A stretch of DNA of 62,567 bases, filler included, from Hausera hauseri (Eukaryota), in the NCBI GenBank assembly GCA_046269625.1. It is 11 parts of 11 records of this genome, joined end to end, with 100 filler letters (N's around TTAATTAATTAA, not from the genome) between each part and the next. Parts side by side here need not be neighbours in the genome. Positions count along the whole stretch, not along the records: positions 58,521 to 62,567 come from JBJURY010795201.1; 10 more parts are not named here. The stretch is one strand, 5' to 3'. The position numbers and the translations under genes were made by a program. This document shows, piece by piece, positions 25,513 to 62,567 of this stretch (positions are counted from its first letter, which is position 1; every line of letters starts with the position of its first letter). The notes beneath the pieces are model-generated. The model was not told the origin of the DNA and did no database searches. It was given only the letters and a program-made list of their open reading frames with translations.

Positions 25513-25789
25513 NNNNNNNNNNNNNNNNNNNNNNNNNNNNNNNNNNNNNNNNNNNNTTAATTAATTAANNNNNNNNNNNNNNNNNNNNNNNNNNNNNNNN
25601 NNNNNNNNNNNNTCAAATGGCTAAACAATTTGTTGCAGATCAACAAACACCGACAACATTTACCTATCAATTAACAACCGGACAATGCAAAGAAACTGAT
25701 CCCAGTGCAAAAGAGCAGAGACCTGATGAAAATTCTGTGTCTAAAAATACTGTAAAAAAGATAAAACTTGATGAATAATCTGTTATTTG

Positions 25790-28700
25790 TATTTATTTTG
25801 ATGTTGCGCCTGACCAACTCATTTCTATTCGACCGCCTGAATATATACTAACTACATTACATTTGTACACTTTACGATTTTCATCTTCTAAGGTTCAGTA
25901 CGGTCTTGAAGTTTTGTTTTCGAATGCTGAAGATGACTATAAAGAAGCTTACATTTCTCGTAGAGTCGTGCCTTATGAGCGATCTTATCCTCAATCTGTA
26001 GACGATGGTTTACGTGAGGAAATTGCGATATTTGCCGAAATGGATAGTGGATGGAAGATAGTTAAGACTTTAAAGTACTGCTTCCATATTGTGAAAACGA
26101 GCACACTACCATATTTGTCCGGATTATCATATCTGCCAACATCTGAAGCCTTACGAAATGCAACGGCCGTTGTTAATGTACAGAATAAGGACAATTTGTG
26201 TTTCTTATATTCAATTATGGCAGTGACCAAGTATTCGGCTATCGACCATAATAGATGTAGAGTTAGTAATTACACTCCTTTCTTAGGTGAGTTTAAATAT
26301 TCCTCGGATGATATGCCTACAAAAATATGTAACATAGGTAAATTTCAGAGACAAAATCCACAGTTGTTAATTACTGTCGTTTTGTTTCACGAGGATGAAG
26401 ATGAAGTTGAGTTCAATGAGGATATTGTAAAAAATCTATTCGTTGATATTTTGTATCAAAGCAAAAATCCGAATGGTACTGTAGTGAACTTGTTGATTTT
26501 GGAAAATGATAATAGGTTTCACTATGTTGCGGTTCCTAATCTTAATCGACTATTGAACATACGTTCTAACAGTATGAGAATTCAATGTAAGCATTGGTGT
26601 GAGAAATGTTTGCATGGCTTCATGTATGACACTGCTTACGCTAAGCATTTACCAATTTGTATGTCTTCTTCCAAGTGTATGACTTTGTATAAAATGCCCA
26701 AAAATAATTTTTGTGAATTTAAGGACTGGGCAAAATCAATAAGTCGTCCTTTTGTAGTATATTCCGACTTTGAATCTGTTTGTTGTTCTGATGATACTGT
26801 TAAACATATTCATTTGCCTGCTGCTGCCGGTCTCTTATTAGTTTCATCAACAGGTATTGAATATAGACTATTTGTTTGTGAAAATTCTACTGTTAAATTT
26901 TTGGCTTGTTTAGATGAAATTTGTAAAACCACAGTTTTGCCTTGCTACAAAAATTCGAAAAAAACGATGATCCCGTTAATTTTTGTTGAATGATTTTGGA
27001 TCAAAATTGCCACGGCTTGTTATCTTTGTCAGGAAAATGGGTCTGACTTTGTTCGAGATCCCTTCCTTGTTGCGGGCAAATTCTTAGGACCTGCTTGCAA
27101 TTAATGTAACGTGGCTCGTCATATCAGATACAATTTACCGGTTATGTCTCATAATTTGCGTGGATATGATCTTTGTCATATTTTAAAACACGCTTTAAGT
27201 AAATTTTATACTTGGGAATTAAGTGTTATTCTTCAAACAACAGAAAAATTCCTGACAATACAGGCAATTATACGCTGCTCAGGTAAAACGTCAGTTTCCA
27301 TTTGATTTCTGAACTCCTTGCAATTTTTACTGGTTTCACTTAAGACTTTAGCTTCGAACTTAGATAGCTGCCCATTCACTGAATCGGCTTTTCCATCTGA
27401 CATCATTAAGGGTAAAGGTATTTTTCCATACACTGCAGCGAAAACATTCAGTGATTTGCAGTCGATTTCGGAATTACCACCAAAATAAGATGTTGTTAGC
27501 GATAGCGATTATGGGGAAGCGCAACTTATCTGGTCAAAGTATAGATGTAGTTGTCTTTTAGATTACATGTTGGTATACATAAAACTCGATGTATATTTGT
27601 TAGATGTTTTTGAACGGTTTTGAAAGCAGGTTAAGTTGTAGAATGGTTTAGAGGCGATTAATTTCGTATCCATTCCCGGAATATCTTGTGAAACAGTATT
27701 GAATACAGGTCTTTGTAAGACTGAGCTAATTCGAGATCGTGAAATGTGCAGTTTCTTTCAATAAGGTATTCGCGGTGGCACGACTTTTGTAAATATGTAT
27801 CGGGTTACTACCGATGAAAGCACCAGTCTCTTTCATATAGATGTAAATAATTTGTACTGCTGGGCTTTATCGCAACTTTTGCCATTTGCGAATTTGGTGT
27901 GGATTTGTAATCTTGAAAAATTAAATAGTCTTATTGAACAATTGCCTTATGTTGACACTGCTAGGGAAAAATGAGGCTTAGTCTTTGAAGTTGATTTAAG
28001 CATTCCAGCTGATAATCACGATAAATTTGACCAACTTCCTCTTGCTCCAATCAATCAGTGCCTTCCTGGTTCAACAATCAAGAAATTGTTGCTGACACAT
28101 GAGCATAAGTCCAGTTATGTTATTCACTATCGGCTGTTACAGTTATACATCGAGTTAAGCGCTGTAGTTGAGAAGGTACATCGGGCTGTTGAGTTTGACC
28201 AGGGTTATGTTTATAAGGATTACATAGATATAAATATTGCTAAGAGGGCTGCAGCGAATAATACTTTTGAAAACGGCTTCTTTAAGCTTAAAAACAACAG
28301 CTTGTATTTGAAAACAGTTGAAAACCTGTTGAAAAGGTCAAACTTGAGGCTGTGTAATAATGCTAAAAAGCTAATTACATATGCTAACAAGGCTCAGTTT
28401 AAAGAGAGTATTATTATAGCCGATGAGCTGGTTGTAGTTCTCCTCGATAAAGACATGGTTACATTAGATAGGCTCTCCTAAATTGGTCAGGCCGTACTTG
28501 ATCTGTTCAAGTTACGGATGTATGAACTGAATTATATCGATTTGGAGACGTATAGGCAACAGTTTCATTGTGAACTTAATATTATAGCCGGTGACACAGA
28601 TAGTTTCTTCCTCGAATGTCGTGGTGTTGATTTGCGATCACAGCTCTTGCCGACAGTGATTTTTAATAAACATTTGGACACTTCGAACTATAATAAAAGT

Positions 28701-30119: not shown

Positions 30120-30932
30120 TTACATCCAATTCATCAGCATCATCAAGATACTCACAATAATTATCAACATCAAAAATCCTACTCCTGCCGTACCAAGCAA
30201 ACAAAGTTTCTTGGAATTCACAGATTTGTGATGATCAGCTGCTGCACTCAATTCTTCCTCAGCATTCGCAACATATCTATCTGCAATTTCAATATTATTT
30301 GCAATTCGATTTATCTCATCACCTTGCTCATAAACTAACGCACTCAATTTTACAAACATGTCTTCAATTTTCACAAGATCATTTTCAATCTTTTCACACT
30401 GTTTCATATCTTGCAAATCTTGTTCAGCTTGTTGATGTTCCAAAATTGACAATTGAAAATTATTTGTTGGTGCTGCACATTGCCAAATATCGTTATTTCT
30501 CTGAGACTCCAAGAAAATTGGTAAGTTTACACTTGTTGAGTTTCCACGTAATGCTGATTGAATATCTTGACAAACCTTTTGAAACATTTTGACCTCATAT
30601 TTTGCCTGTGTTTTCAAACAAGCTATTTTGTTTGTCTTATTTACAAATTCTTTATGATGCTCTTCTGGCAATGACAGACAATCAATATTTCTTCTGACGT
30701 CTTTGTAAGCAATGTCAGTTTTGTGCATCCAATTTTCGTATGCACTAATTGACCCGACATGCATTTTTCTCCACATGACATTATGAGATTTGTTGTTTGT
30801 TTCTAACCTTAATTTCTGTAGGGATTCTTCAATGATCCTGACTTTTGTATCCCATGACTTATCATGCGTGGTACTAATTTCAGTACTGTTGATATTAGCA
30901 GAAAACGGAAACATATTCAATATGACAGACAT
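30120..30932 (-). CDS. Syntaxin (Qa-SNARE), possibly syntaxin-17-like; intact and intronless
   Basis: SNARE motif IENDLVKIEDMFVKLSALVYEQGDEINRIANNIE, a C-terminal TM helix, and an N-terminal WRKMH..SISA segment resembling STX17 WDKLHEEHINA. Confidence 0.8.
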   Translation of the reverse strand: MSVILNMFPFSANINSTEISTTHDKSWDTKVRIIEESLQKLRLETNNKSHNVMWRKMHVGSISAYENWMHKTDIAYKDVRRNIDCLSLPEEHHKEFVNKTNKIACLKTQAKYEVKMFQKVCQDIQSALRGNSTSVNLPIFLESQRNNDIWQCAAPTNNFQLSILEHQQAEQDLQDMKQCEKIENDLVKIEDMFVKLSALVYEQGDEINRIANNIEIADRYVANAEEELSAAADHHKSVNSKKLCLLGTAGVGFLMLIIIVSILMMLMNWM

Positions 30933-32251
30933 TGATTACTGTAGTATTGTTCACAAATCTGTATGATATTTTTATAAATTTTTTAATAAATGAAAGAAGA
31001 TTATTATCCAAGTTTTTTTATCTAATTTTGTATTGGATGATTTTAGTAAAATGTTTGAATGAATAATTTGTTAAACATTCAATTCTGGCATCAGGAAGGA
31101 TCAAGAAGGACGTGTTCACAAGAAAATTTATCAAATTGAATAAAATCGTATTATAGTTTATGTTGAAACATTTATACATATTAAAATGCATGGAAACAAT
31201 GAAAAAAATTATTTGTCAGATTTTTATCATTTGAATTTTACAGTGAATACCACATTTGGTTCTTGACAGGTAAATAGAGTTTTGCAGCATGAAACTAATT
31301 CAATGAATTGATTTTAATTTCATTTACATGATTTCGTACTTTATTGACTGTTCTGCAAATTATGTAAATGAAATTAACATTTTGTTCATTGGATTGGTTT
31401 TTATTGGTTTCTTGGTAATGTATGAATTTGTACATTGCATCAAACTTTTAGTTTGCTACATTTATCCATCTGTGTTTGTCTCGAAATGAAACATCTGCAT
31501 CAGGGAGAGAAGAGGGGGCCGTCATGGCGAAGAGGATTGTGTTTAGCCTTCAGTGAAGAAATAATGGTGCGGAGAGGGCTTGTGCATTCTGTCCGATATT
31601 CGGTGATGATGAATCACTTAAGATGCACTTAGAGGCTTGTATCTGTGTTATAATCTATGTGCTGATGCATCCGCTTGTGCTTGTCTGTTGATAATTTATT
31701 TCAAAGCGTCTTCGCCCTTACAATCGCATCTAGTCAATTTTGCGTTGTATGGTTTGAGAATCCGTCACGATCATTGCATGCAATTTTCTCTTATCACATA
31801 GCCATCTTAGTTCTGCTGTTGCCATTTTTATCTCCCGCAGCGCCCAATTCGTGGATCCCGAAACTAAATTATAAATAAAATTATTTTTTTTTTAAATTAT
31901 TAAAAAAATCATAAACATGATTTTATACAGGGCGCCCTTGACATTCACCTATCAGTACCTGGCCAGTCTTACACATTATGTATAGTGTATACATCGACGA
32001 TGTTGATTGGTGGACTGGATGTGGTAACTGGAGGAGAGAAGACGAAGCTGTCATTGCCCATTGAAGGTAAATAGCGATTCTTGATTAGGAACGAACATCA
32101 CAACACACTTTCTCAGTCAGAACCTGATTTTGCGATCTTCGGATCTTTCCANNNNNNNNNNNNNNNNNNNNNNNNNNNNNNNNNNNNNNNNNNNNTTAAT
32201 TAATTAANNNNNNNNNNNNNNNNNNNNNNNNNNNNNNNNNNNNNNNNNNNN

Positions 32252-44639: not shown

Positions 44640-45358
44640 ATACAAATTAATTACAATGTCAAAATGCGAAACTTTTGTTTTTTGTTATCCAGTGTCTTTT
44701 ATCGTCGAACGGGTCTAATGCCTTCTCTTTTGTATTGACTGCCATTAGCTGGTGAAGTTTCGTCCCAATTCGTTCCAGATCAGCTATTGTTCCACAACCA
44801 TTTGTAAACGCCTGTAGATAGTTGTCGAACTGTAAATCTGCTTGTTTGAGATTTACTCCCTTGCATTTAAGGACTGGTCTGTTTTGGGTTTTCAGCGTAT
44901 AACATTTTGATCTCAAGAAAATACCTTCTTGGTACTTGACACAGCCCTTACTTTCACCCTTAAATTTTCCTATTACAGACGAGAAACGAGTGAAGTATAG
45001 CGAAGTGCTAGTATCATAATTAGACGTGTCCAGCGGTTCATTGTCTATTACTGCTGGTAAAAGTTGTGATCTTAAACGAACTCCACGAAACTCAAGGAAA
45101 AAACTGTCCGTGTCACTAGCCATAATATTTATCTCACAATTATACTGTCACCGATACACCTCCAACTGGATATAATTTAAGTCATATATCCGTAACTTTA
45201 AAAGATCAAGTACCCTCAGACCAATGCATGAGGGTCTATCTAAAGTAACCGTGTCTTTATCGAGAAGAACGGCAACCAGATCATCGGCTATAGTAATACT
45301 TTCTTTAAATTTGGCCCTACTAGCATGTGTGATAAGCCTTTTGGCATTTTTACACAGC
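44640..45358 (-). pseudogene. Polinton pPolB C-terminus, same family as 25790-29063
   Basis: LDRPSCIGLRVLDL, ASDTDS, GKFKGE, FLRSKCY, KCKGV and DDKRHW; colinear with 28350-29050. Confidence 0.9.
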
Positions 45359-48902: not shown

Positions 48903-50839
48903 TTGTAAATCACAATTGTAAAACTGGACAATTCATTGAACAATGAATATGAATCCTTACAAAATTTTACAGATAAACAAATTTATCCTTAAAACTGCCT
49001 CTATAAATTCAGACACCAGCAAATTTATGCAGTCTGATATTCCCGTTGATCAATTGCGTGACCTTGGTGCTTTTAGCTCGACTGAAAATAATTAAAAATT
49101 GTAAACGATTGGAGGATAAGAAACAAAGAAAAATGGCAATAATTAATAATTTATTGAAACAAACAGATGATTCAATAAAAGACAAACTTGAAACGATAAA
49201 GCGCAAGGCCGAACTGTATTTTCTCCAGAGCAAACAGAAAGAGTTAAATTCGAAATAACAGCATTTTAGTGTCAAATAAGTTCATTTAAAAAAGTTGCAG
49301 TTGATTTTAAATCGAAAACAATCACAATCCATGAAAATTTATCGGAATGTACAAATTACCGAGATTTGATCAAGATGAAATCAGACAAATTACGCGAGTT
49401 ATCCAATGAATGTATTCGAAAATCGAAATCCGTTACAAATCAAATCATCGCACTGCAAAGTGTAATTGTCAATGCCAAGAAAATATCCAAATCATCTATC
49501 GACTCCATCGTCGCTATCAACGGGATTCTGGAAATATTTTACAATCGATTTGCTAACGATACTGCACTACCGACAAATCTGCCGTCAATTGTCAAGTGAC
49601 TGGAACAGCGGTTGCAGAATAAAATGTTGGGATCTGTCGTTGAATATCTGCATAATCATGAGGATGATTTCTGTGAAGAAAGCAAAACCATTCATGCTCA
49701 CAACGGTATTTAATTTGTACTGATGTCAATGTTTCCATTTCGTACAATTCTCCAGTGAAGGCAGTTTCCAGTAAACAGCGGGTCAATCGAAAAGTGCAAG
49801 ATTATTTGAAGGAGTTCCGAAAAACGGAAAATGATGTCAATGAAATGATGGATAAAATTGGCAAAGTGTTGCGTGAATGGTATTGTTGCCATGGTAAATT
49901 CCTCGATATTTTATTTGCGATTCAGGACAACGGTGAAGAGGGAGTTTCATGTGGCGTAACAAGGATTTGGTCAATAAATTGTTATTGTCTTTGTTTTTAT
50001 TGGCGCTACCCAATATAATGCTGATAATTTATTTGAAAAATTCCCTTGTCAACAAGGTGGAATGACGTAATTATGAATGAATTTCGGCACTTGTCCAATA
50101 CCCCCCACACACACGGTTTGTAGTAATATTTTCGTCCTTTTTTGAAATCGTGTTTTGCCGAAATTAAACGTATCGTGTCAGCACTTGTAGTGAATGAAGC
50201 ATATGTTTCAGAACCTCTTGGTAAACTATCGTGTACTTGGATGTCGCTTGTCGTTAAAAATTCACTTTTAACATTCGTATCTTGACTTTTCCCGACGAAC
50301 TTGGATGATGTCAATGATTCAACCATGACATTGCTGAGATGGTGATGCGTTATTGAGGAAAGTGGAACTGGTATATGATGGCATACTATTGCTGGAAAAT
50401 TTCAGTGCTGCCAGAAAAACACTTACCGTTGTCGGTCAAGATTGACTTCGGTTTTCCAAATCTGTAAATCCATTTCACCAGCATGCANNNNNNNNNNNNN
50501 NNNNNNNNNNNNNNNNNNNNNNNNNNNNNNNTTAATTAATTAANNNNNNNNNNNNNNNNNNNNNNNNNNNNNNNNNNNNNNNNNNNNTTTGAATTAAGTA
50601 AATATAATAAGATGTTCAATTTTACAGCGCCATTAACCAATGCTTCTAGAAAGTAATTTTTGCGGTATGTGTGTATCCTTTTGAGAAGCTAAAAATACGT
50701 ACCTTTCCACCAGTTCGCTAAATAAGATTGCAGTCTGGGATCATGCAATAGCCCATCATTGTTAATAATGTATGGTTAGACTTAAAAGAATTGAATATCA
50801 CAATATTTTTTTTTCTGAGTAATTTTTTCTTTTAAAAGT

Positions 50840-50980
50840 TGTGAGACGTAGAGATTAGGTCTGAGGTAAAAATTGTATATAAATTTGTCTGTGCACATAA
50901 ACTTATTACATATAAGTTTATGTACTTTATGTACACACACACATTTCTGATTGGACCTTTACCGGATTCCCTAACTAACA
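50840..50980 (-). repeat. Candidate 3' LTR of the BEL element, preceded by a polypurine tract
   Basis: Minus strand aaggaggaggaaatggtggggcccgat|TGTTAG...tctcaCA. Confidence 0.5.
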
Positions 50981-53900
50981 ATCGGGCCCCACCATTTCCT
51001 CCTCCTTGGGGTATTCCGGCTCATCAATTCGGCCTCTACAGCTTCTGACCATTTCAGTTCATTTTCTATTTTACATAACTTGTGCACTGGTCTTTTATAT
51101 GTTTCGCCGTTCAATCTTATTTCTACCACCCTTATAACGTTGTCTATCCCAGGTAAAACCTTTGTTATTTGTGCAACTGGGCAGTGATTTAACTTTTCAT
51201 TCTTCTCCAATAGCCAAGCTTTGTCTCCGATCTTCAGATCTATCTTTTCTCCTTTTATCCTCTCATAATTTCGCCATTCGGATACGAGTTCACTTCTCCA
51301 TCGATTCCAATATTCGTTGACTAACTTCTATACGTATCTCCACCTATCCGCCAAGCTGCTACTTCCTGTCTCAGTTATCTCCGATGAGATTTCACCGTTG
51401 TGTCCGGCTGTTATAAAATGGTTCGTGGTCAATATAACATCATTTTTGCAATAATCAACGGCTATTATTAATGGCCGATTGTTTGTCACTCCTTCGATCT
51501 TTATTAATAACGTTTCCAACTCCTCGTCTGCCAAGGAGATCTCCGGGATTACCTTATTTAGTGAGCTTTTTATCAATTTAATCATTACTTCATAAACTCG
51601 TCCAACGTAAGGTGTTTCAGGAGTGTTGAATATCCATCTTATTTCGGTGTCCTTCAGTTCCCTTTTATGGCTGTAGGTATCTATTTGAAATTAACACACT
51701 TCCCTGTTTGCTCCTATGAATGTTCCTCCATTATCGGAGGTTATCAATGAAGGTCTTCTTCTCCGACTTATGAAACGTTTGAGGACCTTCAAGGAGCAAT
51801 TTGTGTCCAATCCTGTCTACATCTCTACATGCACTCCTCGACAGAGCAAACATGTGATTAGACATATATACCTTTTTTTATGTGCTAAACCTCGCCTTTG
51901 TCGCGTTTTCACCGGTCTTGTGAAATCAATTCCGACTTTATCGAAAGCTTTAAGTGGTAGTTGTGACCTAAACGTCGGTAATGGCGCTCCTATCGTTCGT
52001 ATGCCCTTTGCATTTGCCCTCCTACAAATCTTACAATAGTTTTGATAAGCTTTGACTAACTTCTTCATCTTTGGAAACCAATACCTCCTACTGAATTCCG
52101 CAAATTGGTGGTTGACTCCCGTGGAATGCCGTAAATTTAGACGTGTGTCCTCGATAATTAGTCTTATTACGATGCTCTTTGAAGACAGTATTATTGGGTA
52201 CTTTTGTTCCCAATTCAACCACGAGGTTGTTGTTAAGCTACTGCTTGATCGAAATACCCCTTCATCGTCTAAAACGGGGTTAGACCTTGCAATAAGACCC
52301 CTAAGGCTAATATCCTCCTTGGATCGTAAATTTGTTATTTCTGTAAAGAATTCCTTTTCTTGGTCCTCCTTCATTATTTCCAACTTTGCCTTTCTTCTTA
52401 ACTCTACCTCACGTAGATTATTATTCTCCTCCTTCTGTACGAATTCCTCAATCTTTTGTCAAACCACTCTTTCCCAACGGGATTCTACACACTGTTCGGT
52501 GTCATTCACATTATCCTGTTTTCGGTAATCTCCTTCCAACAAATTATTTTTCCAGGACATCAGTGTGAAGGCGTCTTTCCTCCTTTCCTCATCCTTCGGC
52601 TTCGTTAATTCTCTTGGTTGAATAGGCCATTGGTCTTCTCTTTGTCTGAGAAACTTCGGACCATTCCACCATTATATTTTTTCTCGTAGCTCTTCAATGC
52701 CCAGTCATCTAGACAGGTAGTCCGCTGGGTTATATTCTGTTATATAATTCCATTGTCTCCCGATTGTTTTTTCTTGTATATATCCTTCTCTATTTGCAAC
52801 GAACGTTTTATAATACTTACTGCACCTTTTTATCCAATACAGCACGTTCATTCTGGCCGTCTAGTACTGTATATCTTTCTTCTTGTTGCCCAGTGTCTTT
52901 CTTACTTTGCTCCCCAACTTGACTCCTATACAGGCTGCCATCATTTCCAGTCTTGGTATGGCGACAAATTTTACCGGTGTCACTTTACCTTTCGAGCATA
53001 TGATCACTACTTTAATTTTCCCTTCTACTATCGACTTTAAATAAGCGACTGCTCCATAATCCCATCTCGAGGCGTCGCAGAAGATGTGTACTTTACTATT
53101 ATCGCCCTTTTGAAAGTATAAATATCTTGGTACCTTTATTGTACTCAGATTCTCCATTCCTTTTGTCCACATCTTTATTTTCTCACTTAAATCCTTCGGG
53201 ATAGTTTCATCCCAATTTACACTTATCATCCACAGTTGCTGCAGAAACATTTTCCCGAACAGCGTGTAACAACTGAGGAAACCTAACGGATCGAACACTT
53301 TCACTAATGTGTTTAATAATATTCTTTTAGTTATTTCTGATTCTTGTTTAGTACGATCCTCAAATTCGAATCTATCATCTTCGATCTTTCACTTCATTCC
53401 CAACGTTTTGGTAACAGCGTCCAACTTTTTTAATATTTTAAATTTCTTAGCTCGGTCCTTGGTAGGTATTATGTTCGTTAATTCACTAGAATTTGACACC
53501 CATTTATGTGGTTTCATCCCAGCATTTTCCCATATCTCACTTAACTCATGGCACAGCGAAACAGCTTCTTCTTCAGTGCTAACTGAGTCGATACAATCAC
53601 CCATGTATGTAGAATTCTCTATTGTTTCTACGGCTCTGAGGAAATTTTCTTTGAATTTTTCGGCGTTGTGTCTTGATGTCAATTGGGCCAGAAACGGAGA
53701 GTTGTTCAACACAAATACCAATAGACTGAACTGGTATGTTTTGAGTTTTCCCTCTTAATACCATAGAAATCACAAATATCTCTTATCCCCTTCTTTGATT
53801 TTAATCTGTAAGAACATTTCCTGTATGTCGCATATGACAACCCACGGTCGTTTTCTCATTTGTAATATGATGTCTAAAATGTCCAATGGTAACTTCCGGC

Positions 53901-55114
53901 CGGAATCCAGAAAATCGTTGAGACAATTTCCTCGATATTTCGAAGCAGCATCGAAAACTATCCTACATTTCGTGGTGTCTCTATCGGCTTTCATAACTGG
54001 GAAGTGCGGTAACAACCAAGCTGTATCTGGTTCTTCCTGCTCCTCCAATAATCGAATGTACCCTTCCTTGGTGTGTGCTTCTATCGCTTTTTCGTATGCT
54101 GCCTTTCCCGTCTCATCTTTGTCCAGCTTTCTGTTTAAGGTTTCCAACCTTTTATGTGCCATCTATTCGTTGCATTCCATTTCAGGTTGTATTCCTCCCT
54201 TCCATGGCAACGGCACACAGTATCTCTTTTCTTGATAAGTTGTTTCCCTTAGAATTCTTCCTATCGTCGCCTCGTCTAGTTCATTTTTCTTCGACGTTAT
54301 CACATCCGTATTAAACTCGACCTCCCATAGACGGCTCAGATCCTTTTGAATTTCATCTGTCCATGTCCAGAAAGTCCTTATGAAATTACTTTTATGCTTC
54401 TCTTTCCTTTCTTTATTTATCCTACGCAGGTCCAGCCTAACGGAGTTAATCGCGCTACCGGTACACCCCTTTTACTACATACCTCTTCGATTGACCTGTG
54501 TAACTCTAGAGTTTGCTCCAATAATACCATTCACTTCTAAGTTGCGCTGCAATGTGGGAAACCTTTTGTGCTTTAGATGGGGCCACCTTTGTTTTTCATT
54601 GGACCAATTCACTGCCCTCATCTTTCCAGTTGGATTTTTCATAAAATATGCCTAAAATTGTACTTTCAGTAATCGGTCTATGTTCATCAGTACCAATATT
54701 ACCCTATTAATAGACATCTCAGTCTTTTTTCCTCCGACGACCGTTATTGTTAATCTTTCCGTTTTCTTATCAACCCCCAACTCTTCGCATAATTTTGAAT
54801 CGACGATGCTTTCGGTACTAGCATCGACCAGTAGCAATATTGCTTTCTTTATTCTCGTCCCATTCTGCAACCACACCTCCACTGTTCTCAGTGCTACCAT
54901 CTCTTCTTCTTCGTTTCCCTCTTGAGAACCTTATGTCACATAGGTTCTAACACCTTTTTTCTCAATGTCTCTTTTCCTTTTTCATATTCTACCGTCCGTG
55001 GCAGTGAATCTTCTGCTGTCCTACGTTCTATGTTTTCCTGAGAACTTTTAATTTTTCTCTCTACTTCCTCTTAGTCACGAATGTTTTCGACCTTTTTCTT
55101 GTTATCCATTTTTC

Positions 55115-55265
55115 TATGTAGAAACCTACAATTATTACCATACTTACATTCCCCTTTTTCGAAGTACCAGCATAACCTTCTTTGATCGTCCTTGTTAGAT
55201 TGATGCCAGTATTTGCAATTCTTTCCGAATTTGTACTGTCCATTCTTATCAAAATTACAGCATCT
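55115..55265 (-). other. Two tandem CCCH zinc fingers in BEL Gag
   Basis: CNFDKNGQYKFGKNCKYWH (second Cys mutated to Tyr) and CWYFEKGECKYGNNCRFLH, i.e. C-x7-C-x5-C-x3-H. Confidence 0.8.
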
Positions 55266-56371
55266 CTGGAACTGATCTTCTCGCTGTATATTGTGGTGAC
55301 TAGATTGTACCTCCCTTTTAACTTCTCGATCTCTTACTTTGGAATTCATGTTCGCGTTATCTCTATTTACAGCCCGTGATCTTTTCGTAAAATACGATCT
55401 TCCATCTCCTATCGATGTGTATCGATCACCTTGGCTTGTGTTGACCGCTTCGATTCCTCTTACTCTCTCTCTATGGCATTCCTTCTAACCATCGTTTCTA
55501 TTTCGATCCAATTCTTCAATTCTATGACTGTCCTATTAGAGTTCTTCTGGATCACATACCTTTCCCATAGAAGCACGATTGATTCAGGAAGCTTTTCCAT
55601 GAGACTTTGATACAATAGCCCTCCATTAATTTCTTCCCTTCTCCCTAGATTCCTCAATTTTGAAATTATTCCTTCTAGTAACGCCACGAATTCACCTAGC
55701 CCTTTAATATCTTCCTCCTCTATTACCCGAAATCTTATGACTTCGGTCATGATCGCTGTATTACAACGTTTTGCACCTCCACAATAGGAATCTAATTTCT
55801 CCAGGGACGCTTTATACCCTTCTTCTCATAGGTCAAAATTTTCAATCAGCTTTTTCGGCTCGCCACATAAGCATTGATTCAGCTACAGTTGCTTGTATAT
55901 TTCCGACATTGAGGTTTTGTGGATACAGGTGTCAAAGGTCATTTTCCATTTATCCTATTCGGTAACTAGCATCCCAAACATCGGCAACTCTAATTTTTGC
56001 AACTTTGGCAATATTACTCTTTCCCTTTCCTCCTTTTTAGATCTTCCGTTGGCGATCATCATGTTATTTTTTCTTGAGCTTCTCTCATAGATGATCACGT
56101 TGATTTTTTCGTTCTGATCGTCTAGTTTTTCCATGTCATTCTCTAACAATGTGAGATTCTCCTTTTTTCTCAACTTTCTCGCCACGTTGACTAATATGCT
56201 CGTCTCTCATTGAAGCTCGGTAAACGACTTGTCATACTTTTCGTGATACATTTCGTAATCATAATTATACAAATTTACGTCCATTAACTTCCTCCGAATC
56301 GCTGAAAGGTCGTTGATGTACTTACGTTGCTCAGATATCCTATCTTCCAGTTCTTCTGCAGTTAATTCACT

Positions 56372-56599
56372 CCCACCTTTTAATTGCAGCCGCAAATGAA
56401 CATTTGAATCCTTTTGAATATAATATTTACTAAGTTTCCGAGAATACTTTAGTTGTTTTCCATTGTAAATTAACCGTTGTTGATTTGTTGGGATCCCTTC
56501 TCTTTCCTCGACAACCGACTTCAGTTCCTCTACTTTTTCCTACATTTTGACTAATATCGCAATTATTTTTCCCGAAATTGTCTCAAGAAATATCGCAAA
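56372..56599 (-). other. Ubiquitin/NEDD8-like domain (76 codons) fused in frame within the N-terminus of BEL Gag
   Basis: [75 protein letters not shown]; 36/76 ungapped identities to ubiquitin by manual count. Confidence 0.93.
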
Positions 56600-57224
56600 T
56601 TTTCCCTTTTATATTTTTGTTGCGTCTCCTTGCTGTAAATCCTTGAGATTGAGTACTTCTCTTTCGTCCTTTTTAAACGACTTCTGCAATATTTGTGACT
56701 TATTTCCTTCCAGTATGCAATCCTCCAATACCTTTTCCCATTTCACGCCGCTGATTTTTGGTTCTCGACCGATCCCTTTAACTCGAGGTTCCGCTGTTTC
56801 TAACTTCCAATCTCTTTTGAATTCCTGTAATACATTTAATATCCTGAGGTCAGTCGTCTCGAACAAGGACCTTTTGACGTATTTGCCTCTCCACACCGTT
56901 ACCACTAATTCTGTCAGTCGGTGTCTATTCTCTACGTCTTTAAAAACATAGACATTTTTATCTTTTCTTTTTAAATAATTATCGGCCTTGACGCAAGATA
57001 TTACAACTCCTGAATTTTGCGTCGCCTATGTGAGATAGTCACGATGTTTCATTTTATTCACTTCATAGTATCTCCTCATCGTGCATATTTTACATAATGT
57101 TCCCGCATTTATTTTAATATTTAAACGGAAGGAATAAGTTCCGAAAGCAAGGAGACAGATATGGATACTTCGAAAGAGTAATGCTTCACGTGGTCTGTGC
57201 CCGCGGATCACGGTGCAAAGCACA

Positions 57225-57242
57225 AACCACGCTCTGCTACCA
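57225..57242 (-). promoter_or_regulatory. Primer-binding site complementary to initiator tRNA-Met
   Basis: TGGTAGCAGAGCGTGGTT, a few nt after ...tttcCA and just upstream of the gag frame. Confidence 0.75.
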
Positions 57243-58859
57243 ACAAATGGAAATTCTATATAGAAAATATACGTTATATTTCTTTCGATGTTATTTTCCC
57301 CTTCACTCAAACAATACACCTGATTCATAAAATCGCGACGTATAATTTTCTTTATAAGTTTCTCTCTGGGCCCATTTCCTTTTAAACATTCTTGTTTTAA
57401 TACTGATTTACCTCGTCGATCACGCTTGATCGTCCAAAAAATGTACCTCCCAACAAACTTATTTCTTACTCCACCCGCCTTGACCTCCCCGTTCTCAAGT
57501 TCCGTTCTTCCCTTCTTCCATTCCTCTAGTTCGGTCTGACCAATGCACATAACCCTTCCATTAACCCCAGGCTTAAACCCAAACATGATCGCACTAACCC
57601 CATCAATCACTAACATAAACACACATGCACTCACACTTCGCTTGCAACCTTCGCCGACACCCCCGAGACAAGACAAAGGGAAAGAATGAAAACGATTATA
57701 ATGAACAGTACCTCTCAATTTGCACAGTATATCCAGTCCGTTCTGACGACTACCAGCATCATATAAATAACTACACGTCACCACTGAGAGATCACTGAAC
57801 AGATTCATTCCCAACGAGGTTCGCGAGTCCCACCGACAGGTCCATGATGAACGTCTCAAGGCGGTCGAGTATTTTTGAAATGCACGTCGTGAATAGTTAT
57901 ATCCAGCATATACATTGTTTGGATAAACGGTAAATTGATACACGACATCTACGGAAATCAAGTTTTGTTGTAATGACAATCTCGAAGAATATTGTCTATC
58001 TATTTTTGATGCAGGTTCAATCGCTTGCTCGACTTATTTCAATTCCAGAAGTGGGTCATATCATTATGGTTGATGTCAAATTCATCTTTTAGTTTCATCA
58101 ATTCGGTGACAGATTTACCAACGTCATCTAATTTATCATCGTTTTCCAAATAATCCTTTATTTTAGAACCAAATAATTCCAAAATTAATAGTTTCTTTGA
58201 GATCAGAGTAAACACCATCATTACCGACTTTCGGAATTTGATTTCAATATGATGTCTCATCAGTTTATTCACAATTTCATTAGATTTTTCTATTTTTAAA
58301 TGACATTAGGCAATTAACAGCTCTTCACAGATCTGAATATTCTGATCTATCATTTATTCTTAAGTATATTCCAAATTAACAATATTTCAAATTTTAAATT
58401 TTGAATTTATCAATTTTTAANNNNNNNNNNNNNNNNNNNNNNNNNNNNNNNNNNNNNNNNNNNNTTAATTAATTAANNNNNNNNNNNNNNNNNNNNNNNN
58501 NNNNNNNNNNNNNNNNNNNNTAGGTATGGATAAGAATATGTGCATCGCTTCGTTAGCTTCTGCATTGTCTACTTCATCTATCATGATCTGAATTAAGTCA
58601 ATCATTTTGTAATACTCATATAAGATGTCTTCTACTAGTGGATCTTTGTAGTCGCTTTGTCTTTATTTCGTTGATTATGCTTGTTAAGTGTTTGAATAAT
58701 CATACTTATGAGTTGGTCTGTATCCTTTATGCATTTCTTTCCTGTTGCTTTGGGTATATTTGGATGAACTCTGCGAATAATATGCCTTTAAATCCTGCAT
58801 ATCATCGTAATCGAAGTTGGTGTGATAGTTGTACTCTTGATCGATATAACTTTCCTGAA

Positions 58860-60880
58860 ATCTTGATAGGAAATCTGCATTAGCGTTAGCTTTTCCTTGT
58901 CGGTATTTTATTGAGATCTCTAAATCCTGGATTTCATTAATTTTCGACTGGTATCTCGTTGTTTCATTAGCCATTGTAAAGGTTTCTGATCAGTGTATAG
59001 AATTATTTATCGTCCAGTTATATAATGTCTGAAATATCGTAGGGCATATACTACGGCGTAGCATTCTCGCTCGATTTTTGACCACCTACGTTGTGTTTTG
59101 CTTAACGTTTTACTAAGGCATGCTATTATTCCTTCGCGTGGTTTGTTAGGAACCGATTGTCCTAAGACGGCTCCTATAGCATAACCACTGGCATCGGTCA
59201 TTATTATATAGGGATATTTGGGGTCAGGAAATTGTAATATTGGAGGTGAAGTAAGTACTTGTTTTAAAACCTCGAATGCTCTCTGGTGTATTCCTTCCCA
59301 ATTCCATGTTGTTAATTCTACTAATGGTTCAACTATACTTGCAAAATTATACACAAACATTTTGTAATAGTTAGCCATTCCTAACAGTCGTCGTAATTCT
59401 TTAAGACATTTGGGCGCTTTTAATTTCTTAAGTTTCTCTACATTTCTAGGATCAGGTTGAATTCCTTTACTTGACACTATGTGTCCAAGAAACGTGACGG
59501 TATTCTTAACAAATTCGCACTTTTTTAATTTGATCTTTAGATGAGCTTGCATTAACCTATCAAATACGTGAGAAATATCTTTTAAATGTTGTTCCAAATT
59601 TCCGGAAAATATTATTACATCGTTTATGTATACCATAAAACAAGTTAATCCTTGTAATACAAAATTCATACACCTCTGAAATGTAGCGGGTCCTTTTGTC
59701 AGACCAAAAGGCATAACATTAAATTCCCATAATACAGTTCCAGCAGAAAAAGCTGTTTTTTGTTTATCTTCTTCGGCAAATTCGACTTGCCAAAATTTAC
59801 ATGGTAAATCTAGAGTGGCAAATAGTGCAGCATTTCGTAAGGCCGTCAGCATTTCATCTATCTTTGGTAATGGATAATTATCTTTTTTGGTGACATTGTT
59901 TACTGCTCTAAAGTCAACGCGAAATCGTTGTGCTCCATCTCTCTTTTGTACCAATACTACTGGAGACGTCCATGGTGAGAAACTTGGTATAATAATACCA
60001 TGTTCAATCATTTGTGCTATTTGTTTATCACATTCCTCTTTATTGACTTCTGCCATTCGGTATGGATTTTGTTTAACAGGATATGTGTTTTCGGTAATTA
60101 TATGATGTTGAATAACGTTAGTTCTACCAATATCATTATCATTCATAGCTATGGTATCTCGATATTTGTGAAATAATTGCAGTAATTTTTTCAATTGGTA
60201 TGGGGTTAAATCGCCATCTTTAAACTTAATATTCTCATCTTCTACGAGAAACGTTGCAGCGCATACCTTGACTGGCTGTAATTGTCCTAAATTAAGATTT
60301 TGCCGTAATCTGATTTCTTTCTTATTAATGCTTTCTATTAGCAATTCCAAACATTGTACTACTTTTGGTACAAACAAAGGATATTGTAGTATATTATATT
60401 TCTCATTATTATACAAATTCGGTTCGAACATACAGGTTTGCTTGAAATATTGCGATGGTATTATTAGCATTACCACTATCTGTTGTTGTGGTTTAATAAT
60501 AACATCATGAGTCAGGGTCATACTAATTTCCTCAATTGGCAAATTGGTCATTGTGCATTTAAGGGTTTTAGTTAATAGATCCATTGAAAGTCCAGAGATT
60601 TGAGATAATACATCCATCGCTATTACCAAGGTACTGGTAATATTTTATCATCTACCACAAACAGGGTTATAGTGTATAAATTATAGTCAATTTTTATTTC
60701 AATATTTATTTTTTCTAAAAATTGTACTTGCATAGAATTAGCCGCTGCTATTACTACATCGCTTGGCATAATTTCTCCTTTTTGATCGTCCGTTAAATAT
60801 GAGTGTCGAATCACTGACACAGATGCACCGGTATCTAACAATGCCATTATGTTCAATCCACTAAATCGTATGGGAATATA
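58860..60880 (-). pseudogene. pol: aspartic protease, dUTPase-like spacer, reverse transcriptase, RNase H
   Basis: Motifs as above; a frameshift near 60625 splits the protease C-terminus (ILPVP / VIAMDVL). Confidence 0.9.
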
Positions 60881-61269
60881 CGGGTTATTTTCTGTTGTTA
60901 CTGTAGTTTGGTTCATAAAAATGAATTTTGTGTTATTTCGTCGATTCTCCGTGGTATTATATTGTCGGAGTACGTTTGGTGGATACGCAGCACTTGGTAA
61001 GCAGGAATATTTATCCGAATCTCTTATCATTGGGAGTTCGAACATGGACGTAGCTTTCATATCTTTGTGATCAAGATGTTCTGGGTATTCATATATAGGT
61101 TCGGGATTATGGTATGTTTGTGCTTCTGGCTTGAAATGTTGTCTAGCTTTCTTACTTAGCAATTTATATTTAACAAGATATTCCTCCACAGTTAAATTAA
61201 TAAAGGCTTGTAATTGTTGTTCCAATTCTGGGGCTAAACGAAATTCCTTTCTTAATTTATCAAATTCCT

Positions 61270-62567
61270 TTGCATGCCAATACATTAACACTGATTGGGC
61301 CATTAAGGGAAAACATCCCAACATAATTTGCCATGTACAACCTCGTACTTTTTTTATATTTCTGGCGGCTCCTATTTGTCTTAATATAACCAATATGGTG
61401 GTGATTATAACATATATAGCAAAAACTCCAGATATAACTTAGTCAAAAATAAGGAATTTATTCCAAAAGTCATAAAGGATCCTCTTAGCTGTTTTTTCTA
61501 AATGATCAACTGGCAATAGCATCCCATAATTAGGCGTACCATCTAATCCTTTGGTAACAGTATATACAAACTCTGTATTAACTTTTTCTCGGATGTTATG
61601 GAATAATACTTGCTTTCTTACTGCTTCCAGATCAGTTAAATAATATAATCCGTTGGTAGGAAGTTCTCTGTTTACTTTACATTTTATACCTTTATCCAAC
61701 GGTAAAAACCCAATCGTCTGTGGTATATTCATCATAATTAAAGAGCGTGTTTTAGTCCATCTTCCCTCACTGAGTTTNNNNNNNNNNTGGTGCGAAAGTA
61801 ATTCAAGTAGGTAATAACAATTTTTGAGTAATGGGATCCACATATCCAAATTTGATCATATTTTTATCGTTATACTGGACCATTAGTTCATTCGTGCAAT
61901 TGGCCTTTGAAGATGTTACGAGTGTTACTTCTATCGGTGGACATTGGTATACATGGAGTATTTCGCCTTGTACTCTACCAATTGTTCCAGGGCGATATCC
62001 CATAATTAAAGCAATATGTTTACGGAATTCTCTAGCTAATATTAAGTCATGTTGGTTTAATTTTTGAGTAATTTTATAGCCTTTTATCACCATCATATTG
62101 TGTAATTCGACTAAATCCATTTTTGCGGCATAATAAATATAATCTGTCTTGTTATTCGTATAAAGATACCACTTTATATCTTCAGTTGGTAATCTTCCTG
62201 TATTCGCTAAGGTTTCCTTTGTTACAAACAGATCATTATATCATGTAGAATAAACAGCTTTTGATCCACAAGTTGATACCGCTCCTTTTCGTGCCAATAC
62301 AATTCCGTCTCTATCGTTAGATGACATTAATACTTTCAAAGAAGTGGTCTGTTTTAAATTTCGTGATATAGGTAAGGTTATATTATGATTATGCACAGGT
62401 TTTTGATATTCATCATCGTAATATAAATCACCTTGAATTTTGTACATTGATACTTGATTAAGGAGAGCTAATAGACATATCGTGATTGTATTTTCCCATA
62501 CTAATATAGATTCTCCTAAAGTACACATTCCATTATATTATGTACACGACGGTGCGGTTAACATTTC
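61270..62567 (-). pseudogene. Chuvirus/herpesvirus-gB-like (class III fusion) envelope glycoprotein
   Basis: CTYNNGMC..LVW, TCG...YST*YNDLF, YTNNKTDY, LILA..HIALIMGYRPG..GRVQGEILHVYQCPPIEV...CTNELMV...GYVDPITQKL, then FWNKFLIF and TM VISGVFAIYVIITTILVIL. Confidence 0.75.

Follow-up and report, generated by a model that had tools for sequence, protein, structure and literature searches.

In Hausera hauseri (GCA_046269625.1), does a Ty3/Gypsy retrotransposon encode its envelope protein (Env) ahead of, and in one polyprotein with, its protease and reverse transcriptase (RT), and is such a gene order new? The locus that raises this question lies in what we call the window, i.e., the whole stretch of DNA analyzed (62,567 nucleotides), which strings together contig pieces with N linkers between them; the element is confined to the last piece (58521–62567, from JBJURY010795201.1), where it occupies the minus strand. 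Very probably, what is preserved there is one decayed copy from a Burro/GYPSM1-like family of Ty3/Gypsy elements that likely encodes Gag, Env, protease, RT, RNase H, and integrase as one polyprotein. The layout itself has already been published, and the window copy is a further, decayed example of it.

Layout of the element

Read along the minus strand, the element begins in an env of chuvirus/gB type (PF24664) and continues with a transmembrane (TM) helix, a linker, a protease, and a Gypsy RT-RNase H. The closest env relative, a protein of 1,963 aa (P0002), is 59% identical to the 5′ part of the window Env over P0002 residues 1533–1788, and 68% identical on the other side of an assembly gap, where 61280–61777 align with residues 1798–1963. 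Pfam matches, frame analysis, and Kyte-Doolittle (KD) hydrophobicity give the following features:

61788..62567, minus strand: gB/chuvirus-type Env ectodomain, 5′ part (PF24664, Pfam E 1.6e-13 at 61806–62240)
61778..61787, no strand: 10-N scaffold gap inside env (P0002 has 9 residues there)
61442..61777, minus strand: 3′ part of the Env ectodomain, with the membrane-proximal region (PF24664, E 2.5e-5 over 61442–61855, under the curated cutoff)
61439..61441, minus strand: TAA in frame, where the TM helix begins (aligned position open in relatives)
61382..61438, minus strand: predicted transmembrane (stop-transfer) helix, 19 residues (KD mean 2.74)
61337..61381, minus strand: basic juxtamembrane loop, predicted to be cytosolic by the positive-inside rule (5 K/R, 0 D/E)
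61277..61333, minus strand: second hydrophobic stretch, WQIMLGCFPLMAQSVLMYW (KD 1.26)
60884..61276, minus strand: open linker from the Env tail to the protease (0 stops in the 132 codons of 60884–61279)
60626..60892, minus strand: retroviral-type aspartic protease, with DTGAS at 60821–60835 (RVP, E 7e-6)
60623..60644 (about), minus strand: frame change inside the protease C-terminus, ahead of RT, from comparison with relatives
58932..60644, minus strand: protease C-terminus, spacer, Gypsy-type RT (59475–59951), and RNase H (RVT_1, E 8e-29; RT_RNaseH_2, E 3e-30)

Past the protease, the Pfam matches in the window copy are RVT_1, RT_RNaseH, and RT_RNaseH_2, on the frame of 59010–60644; the RVP match belongs to that of 60626–61438. 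The contig piece stops short of the integrase, and the window end falls inside env, with about 170 N-terminal residues of Env lying past it; the window does not reach the Gag, LTRs, or integrase of this copy.

Reading frame and decay of the window copy

A single frame, running from the N gap into the protease, holds the TM helix, WQIMLGCFPLMAQSVLMYW, a linker of about 147 residues, and DTGAS, interrupted by one TAA. Across the linker the protease frame has no stops, each of the others having several (9 and 14), and a stop-free linker arose in none of 20,000 dinucleotide shuffles (mean 9.5 stops). The Pfam scan of the window copy gave no Gag-like match between env and protease. Both the in-frame arrangement with its one TAA and the lack of an intervening Gag had been described in a first-pass annotation of this DNA, and both hold. 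Since 9 residues of P0002 stand against the 10 N of the window, the gap is probably a placeholder, and the alignment with P0002 shows no real frameshift at this point.

The same description, although accurate as far as it went, omitted much of the decay. Upstream of the TAA, env has three more stops (62538–62540, 62241–62243, and 61803–61805), four in total; downstream there are the frame change at 60623–60644, a stop at 59007–59009, and a further frame change near 58932. Given the four stops in env and the two frame changes, the window copy is dead and cannot make the polyprotein, and the suggestion that it might be a potentially infectious endogenous virus finds no support for this copy.

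Contigs of a sequencing run that may be the source sample (X1, Logan contigs) were compared with the window copy. X1 is the one run listed as containing the stretch; no RNA run is listed, which says nothing about expression. On the stretch of about 4 kb there are 12,915 X1 contigs, a number that fits a very abundant repeat and is not a copy number. At 61441, within the TAA triplet, the window letter is contradicted by 99.6% of the summed X1 contig depth (50 contigs), and therefore, provided X1 is representative, the stop is not a family feature. As the sole stop between gap and protease, placed just ahead of the TM helix, this TAA might be read as a programmed readthrough stop that yields a secreted ectodomain along with a membrane-bound Env-Pol. 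However, the X1 majority at the stop, the ten listed relatives that are open at the aligned position, and the three further env stops in the window copy leave this reading next to no chance, and ordinary decay is preferred.

The frame change inside the protease C-terminus is likewise likely to be decay. It is called so mainly from the relatives, because the X1 contigs list no indel at a 25% share there; one X1 contig over 60598–60757 aligns with a gap. A programmed frameshift at the protease-RT joint was rejected, as no canonical slippery heptamer was seen by eye and the shift lies inside the protease domain.

Among the X1 contigs listed, none bridges env to protease in one piece, Logan contigs being too short. 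A by-hand tally of variable linker sites, which used positions only and is uninformative, placed 4 of 13 at the third codon position, with no excess.

One open reading frame in the relatives

Whether the family as a whole encodes Env and Pol together can be judged from its relatives. These were found with the RT frame, the env of a relative, and the env-protease frame as queries, with cluster members added, and 44 proteins were screened. The TM region was matched by 36 of them. In all 23 relatives with a tail of more than 100 residues, a protease motif follows the TM region in the same ORF, a proportion that is not unbiased since the queries favor long or protease-bearing proteins and some of the proteins share 50% clusters. 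In eleven relatives, the ORF with env and protease also contains the YxDD motif of RT. The order env, protease, RT, RNase H, integrase was found by Pfam in ten proteins (P0017, P0022, P0123, P0124, P0126, P0128, P0130, P0132, P0159, and P0161), the integrase following RNase H. The Env-Pol fusion proposed from the window alone is thus borne out at family level. As to whether gag precedes env, the relatives answer in the affirmative, with Gag upstream of env in the same ORF (as PF03732 in P0123 and P0146, and as CCHC knuckles in P0127, P0128, and P0130), whereas the Gag position of this copy is past the window end.

The remaining 13 of the 36 TM-matching proteins end within 73 residues. P0002 is one of them and the other 12 are mostly short fragments. 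P0002 terminates just past the second hydrophobic stretch, and a real stop, decay, and a contig end are indistinguishable there. Given that P0002 is the closest env relative, and that X1 depth is low across 60950–61126, it could be argued that Gag-Env of this sub-lineage ends after the Env tail and that Pol is made via readthrough, a frameshift, or a separate RNA. However, the window copy is open at this place, with 132 codons in the protease frame; there is no majority X1 difference at 61277–61279 among the 40 rows listed of 73; the long-tailed relatives read through without exception; and the low X1 depth fits a fast-evolving linker. We therefore consider termination after Env improbable, and a continuous Gag-Env-Pol frame remains the preferred reading.

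Several relatives have additional domains. In P0017, P0022, P0123, P0124, P0128, P0130, and P0020, the ORF continues past the integrase into a second predicted membrane protein, made up of a signal-like segment and an ectodomain, in most with a TM segment (P0124 has an Ig_3 match, E 1.5e-5); the available passages of the two main reports on related elements (PMC6431247 and PMC13524379) make no mention of it. Two to six retropepsin-like domains per polyprotein, some after the integrase, occur in P0126, P0127, P0128, P0132, and P0161, with C2H2 fingers or ankyrin repeats lying between them. P0022 (HBK71150.1), a Gypsy env-pol polyprotein, is annotated as a protein of a Flavobacteriaceae MAG and is likely mis-binned animal DNA.

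RT phylogeny and origin as a single element

A rival reading is that env and pol derive from separate elements, nested or lying side by side, such as a BEL env of Anakin type next to a Gypsy pol. The window is dense in LTR fragments, including a BEL element at 50588–58420, and BEL elements with PF24664 do exist (P0129). However, the window Env scores 76–307 bits against Gypsy env-pol proteins and 51.6 bits against the BEL-type P0129, and the env-protease junction is an open frame. The window RT, which groups among Gypsy pol proteins, has the same closest clade as the env: of 123 RT-bearing hits, the 13 that match it best all fall in the clade of the env-pol relatives (48–54% identity), and the window RT is sister to this clade with moderate support on a long branch (UFBoot 89; UFBoot 91 in a second IQ-TREE tree with added taxa and a shorter search; FastTree 0.955). 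The large RT tree leaves out three partial RT hits, and P0129 has no RT hit and is not usable as an outgroup. Because the window RT is sister to the env-pol clade and its best matches all lie there, nesting of two elements is unlikely, and given the env scores and the open junction we give it very little credence. The phylogeny thus agrees with a single element. At this level of RT identity to the nearest clade, the window copy adds a divergent member and little else.

Fold of the envelope protein

The first-pass annotation expected a class III fusogen, and structure comparison agrees, mainly through a relative. An AF2 model of the relative P0139 (pLDDT 73) gave 115 Foldseek matches at E 0.001 or better; against herpesvirus gB the match had E 2.3e-13 and TMq 0.32, the gB matches being to HSV, VZV, and PRV, and alignment with gB by VIA-align gave Z 9.7 and an rmsd of 8.7 over 414 aligned residues. 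For a model of the window's own 260-residue fragment, with X at the stops (pLDDT 61), the matches listed are all class III fusogens, nearly all of them gB, and gB heads the list with a best E of 0.018, which is weak. A phmmer search of P0002 against PDB sequences returned one match, at E 1.1. The assignment of the window Env to the class III (gB/chuvirus-like) fusogens is therefore supported.

Relation to published elements

The gene order had been presented as unusual. It is not new: an env lying in frame with gag before it and pol after it has been in print since 2019 (Arkhipova and Yushenova, 2019; PMC6431247), and GAG-ENV-POL elements were reported from three phyla in 2026 (Chary and Hayashi, 2026; PMC13524379), as far as the available passages of these papers describe them.

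Burro and GYPSM1, in the passages of the earlier paper, are giant Gypsy-like LTR retrotransposons of dugesiid planarians, more than 30 kb long with LTRs, present in thousands of copies and having an ORF of 4.9–5.1 thousand aa (Burro1 ORF1 has 4,873 aa), and decaying Burro fragments are found in Dugesia japonica. Their Env is homologous to mononegavirus fusion glycoproteins and belongs to one polyprotein with Gag and Pol, in frame and placed between the two, with protease, RT, and RNase H coming after it; ubiquitin/SUMO-like and BCL2-like domains precede env, and a dUTPase-like domain lies between protease and RT (Arkhipova and Yushenova, 2019).

The window copy resembles them in having env, from the N gap onward, in frame with the protease, with one decay stop; its protease-RT joint is broken. 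In its relatives, env is preceded by weak segments of ubiquitin-like (by eye) and Bcl-2-like character, and ankyrin repeats occur in other places. In size, one relative (4,844 aa) comes close to Burro1 ORF1, whereas most have 2.6–3.9 thousand aa. The Bcl-2 match of P0139 in Pfam (E 0.00096) is under the cutoff, P0002 aligns weakly with the Bcl-2-like segment of P0130 (E 0.034), and a fold search of the partial domain gave generic helical matches only. For the spacer between protease and RT (60200–60629), phmmer against PDB sequences gave 0 hits and Pfam none. The window element is therefore called Burro-like here and not a proven Burro, the likeness being one of described features. In the manner described for Burro, residues ~1030–1320 of P0002, just before the env signal, hold a segment that looks ubiquitin-like by eye and a helical one, weakly Bcl-2-like, that carries a GGW motif.

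According to the available passages of the later paper, GAG-ENV-POL elements with a gB-type env occur in Nematoda, Bryozoa, and Platyhelminthes, among them six Schmidtea elements with a Platyhelminthes C1a env (Smed_errantivirus_1-6), and GAG-ENV-POL elements are not monophyletic (Chary and Hayashi, 2026). The window element shares with these errantiviruses, as described there, the gene order from env to pol, an env of HSV/gB type, as well as the Ty3/gypsy pol; by eye, domains I–II of the Schmidtea env, as given in that paper, share cysteine spacing and a GESIL-type segment with the window env. That study, according to the same passages, kept intact copies, whereas the window copy is decayed. 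The passages do not state the single-ORF status or the processing of the GAG-ENV-POL parts, and the ORF maps and trees in the eLife figures may already give the single-ORF structure along with the topology. For the nematode elements the paper cites Sacco 2022 (PMC13524379). These elements have the same order, and in Caenorhabditis nigoni env, protease, RT, RNase H, and integrase lie in one protein of 2,658 aa (CAO4382312.1, P0152). Sacco's 2022 account is said to describe nematode elements with a 'continuous gag-env-pro-pol ORF'. The RT of P0152 falls outside the clade holding the window RT, consistent with the non-monophyly stated in the passages of Chary and Hayashi (2026).

Anakin elements, which are BEL/Pao elements with a chuvirus glycoprotein according to the passages available (PMC7642597; cited in PMC12440569 and PMC13524379), share the env family PF24664 with the window element but differ in having a BEL/Pao pol and an env placed after the integrase, as in P0129.

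Membrane topology and a possible route for Pol into particles

An Env fused to Pol had been taken to mean that the whole polyprotein must cross the ER membrane. The hydrophobicity profiles suggest instead that only the ectodomain is translocated. By eye, 17 of 17 proteins carry a hydrophobic signal-like segment just upstream of where env begins; its KD is 1.6 or more in 8 of 10. The TM helix reaches KD 1.79–2.74 in the window copy and its relatives. In membrane proteins, according to the well-established positive-inside rule, basic loops are retained on the cytosolic side, and this is the basis for placing the juxtamembrane loop there.

A rival reading concerns the second hydrophobic stretch. 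If it were a true second TM segment, protease and RT would be lumenal, or a third crossing would be needed; its KD reaches 1.75 in P0130, and the passages of one paper note, for some gB-type ectodomains, two flanking TM domains, one per side (PMC13524379). Against this, in 11 of 11 proteins tested the stretch has a KD of 1.12–1.75, a summed biological hydrophobicity of +4.1 to +8.3, and a central Gly and Pro; the window copy has no third hydrophobic segment ahead of the protease; and an RT in the lumen could not replicate the element. A second TM segment is thus highly improbable, and the stretch is likely a cytosolic amphipathic or re-entrant helix. Pol probably never crosses the ER membrane.

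From this topology we infer the following route. Gag and the cargo domains would be made in the cytosol, and the internal signal sequence just before Env would direct the ectodomain into the ER lumen, where host signal peptidase would cut at this signal. The TM helix would stop transfer, leaving the second hydrophobic stretch on the cytosolic face and the linker, protease, RT, and integrase in the cytosol as a long Env tail, whose domains would then be freed by the element's own protease. Particles would bud at internal or plasma membranes, with the class III fusogen serving cell-to-cell spread. It is possible, though we consider it rather doubtful, that Pol is packaged as the Env cytoplasmic tail and not as a Gag-Pol fusion, and that signal peptidase splits membrane-anchored Gag from Env-Pol. 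A full-text literature search on topology and signal peptidase, whose one return was an unrelated review of foamy viruses, found no account of Pol packaging via an Env tail.

If Pol did travel in this way, every replication round, even an intracellular one, would need membrane budding, with Gag, Env, and Pol made at 1:1:1, and a reverse-transcribing element would be using a polyprotein strategy like that of flaviviruses and alphaviruses. The single-ORF relatives all keep the signal-like segment before Env and, ahead of the protease, one strong TM helix plus a second helix that stays below threshold, and with these shared features the cutting of gag-env-pol and the entry of Pol into particles become testable.

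Other elements in the window

By eye, the BEL element at 50588–58420 (minus strand) is a decayed BEL/Pao element with a ubiquitin-like segment (~56207–56539) before the gag region and CCCH-like fingers (~55071–55484). Two minus-strand segments, one syntaxin-like (30123–30935) and one G-protein-alpha-like and degenerate-looking (16035–16715), are intron-free and possibly retrocopies by the same kind of inspection. Four more (25779–28478, 18712–19401, 44662–45147, and 13562–14227) resemble, again by eye, fragments of Polinton-type DNA polymerase and capsid genes.
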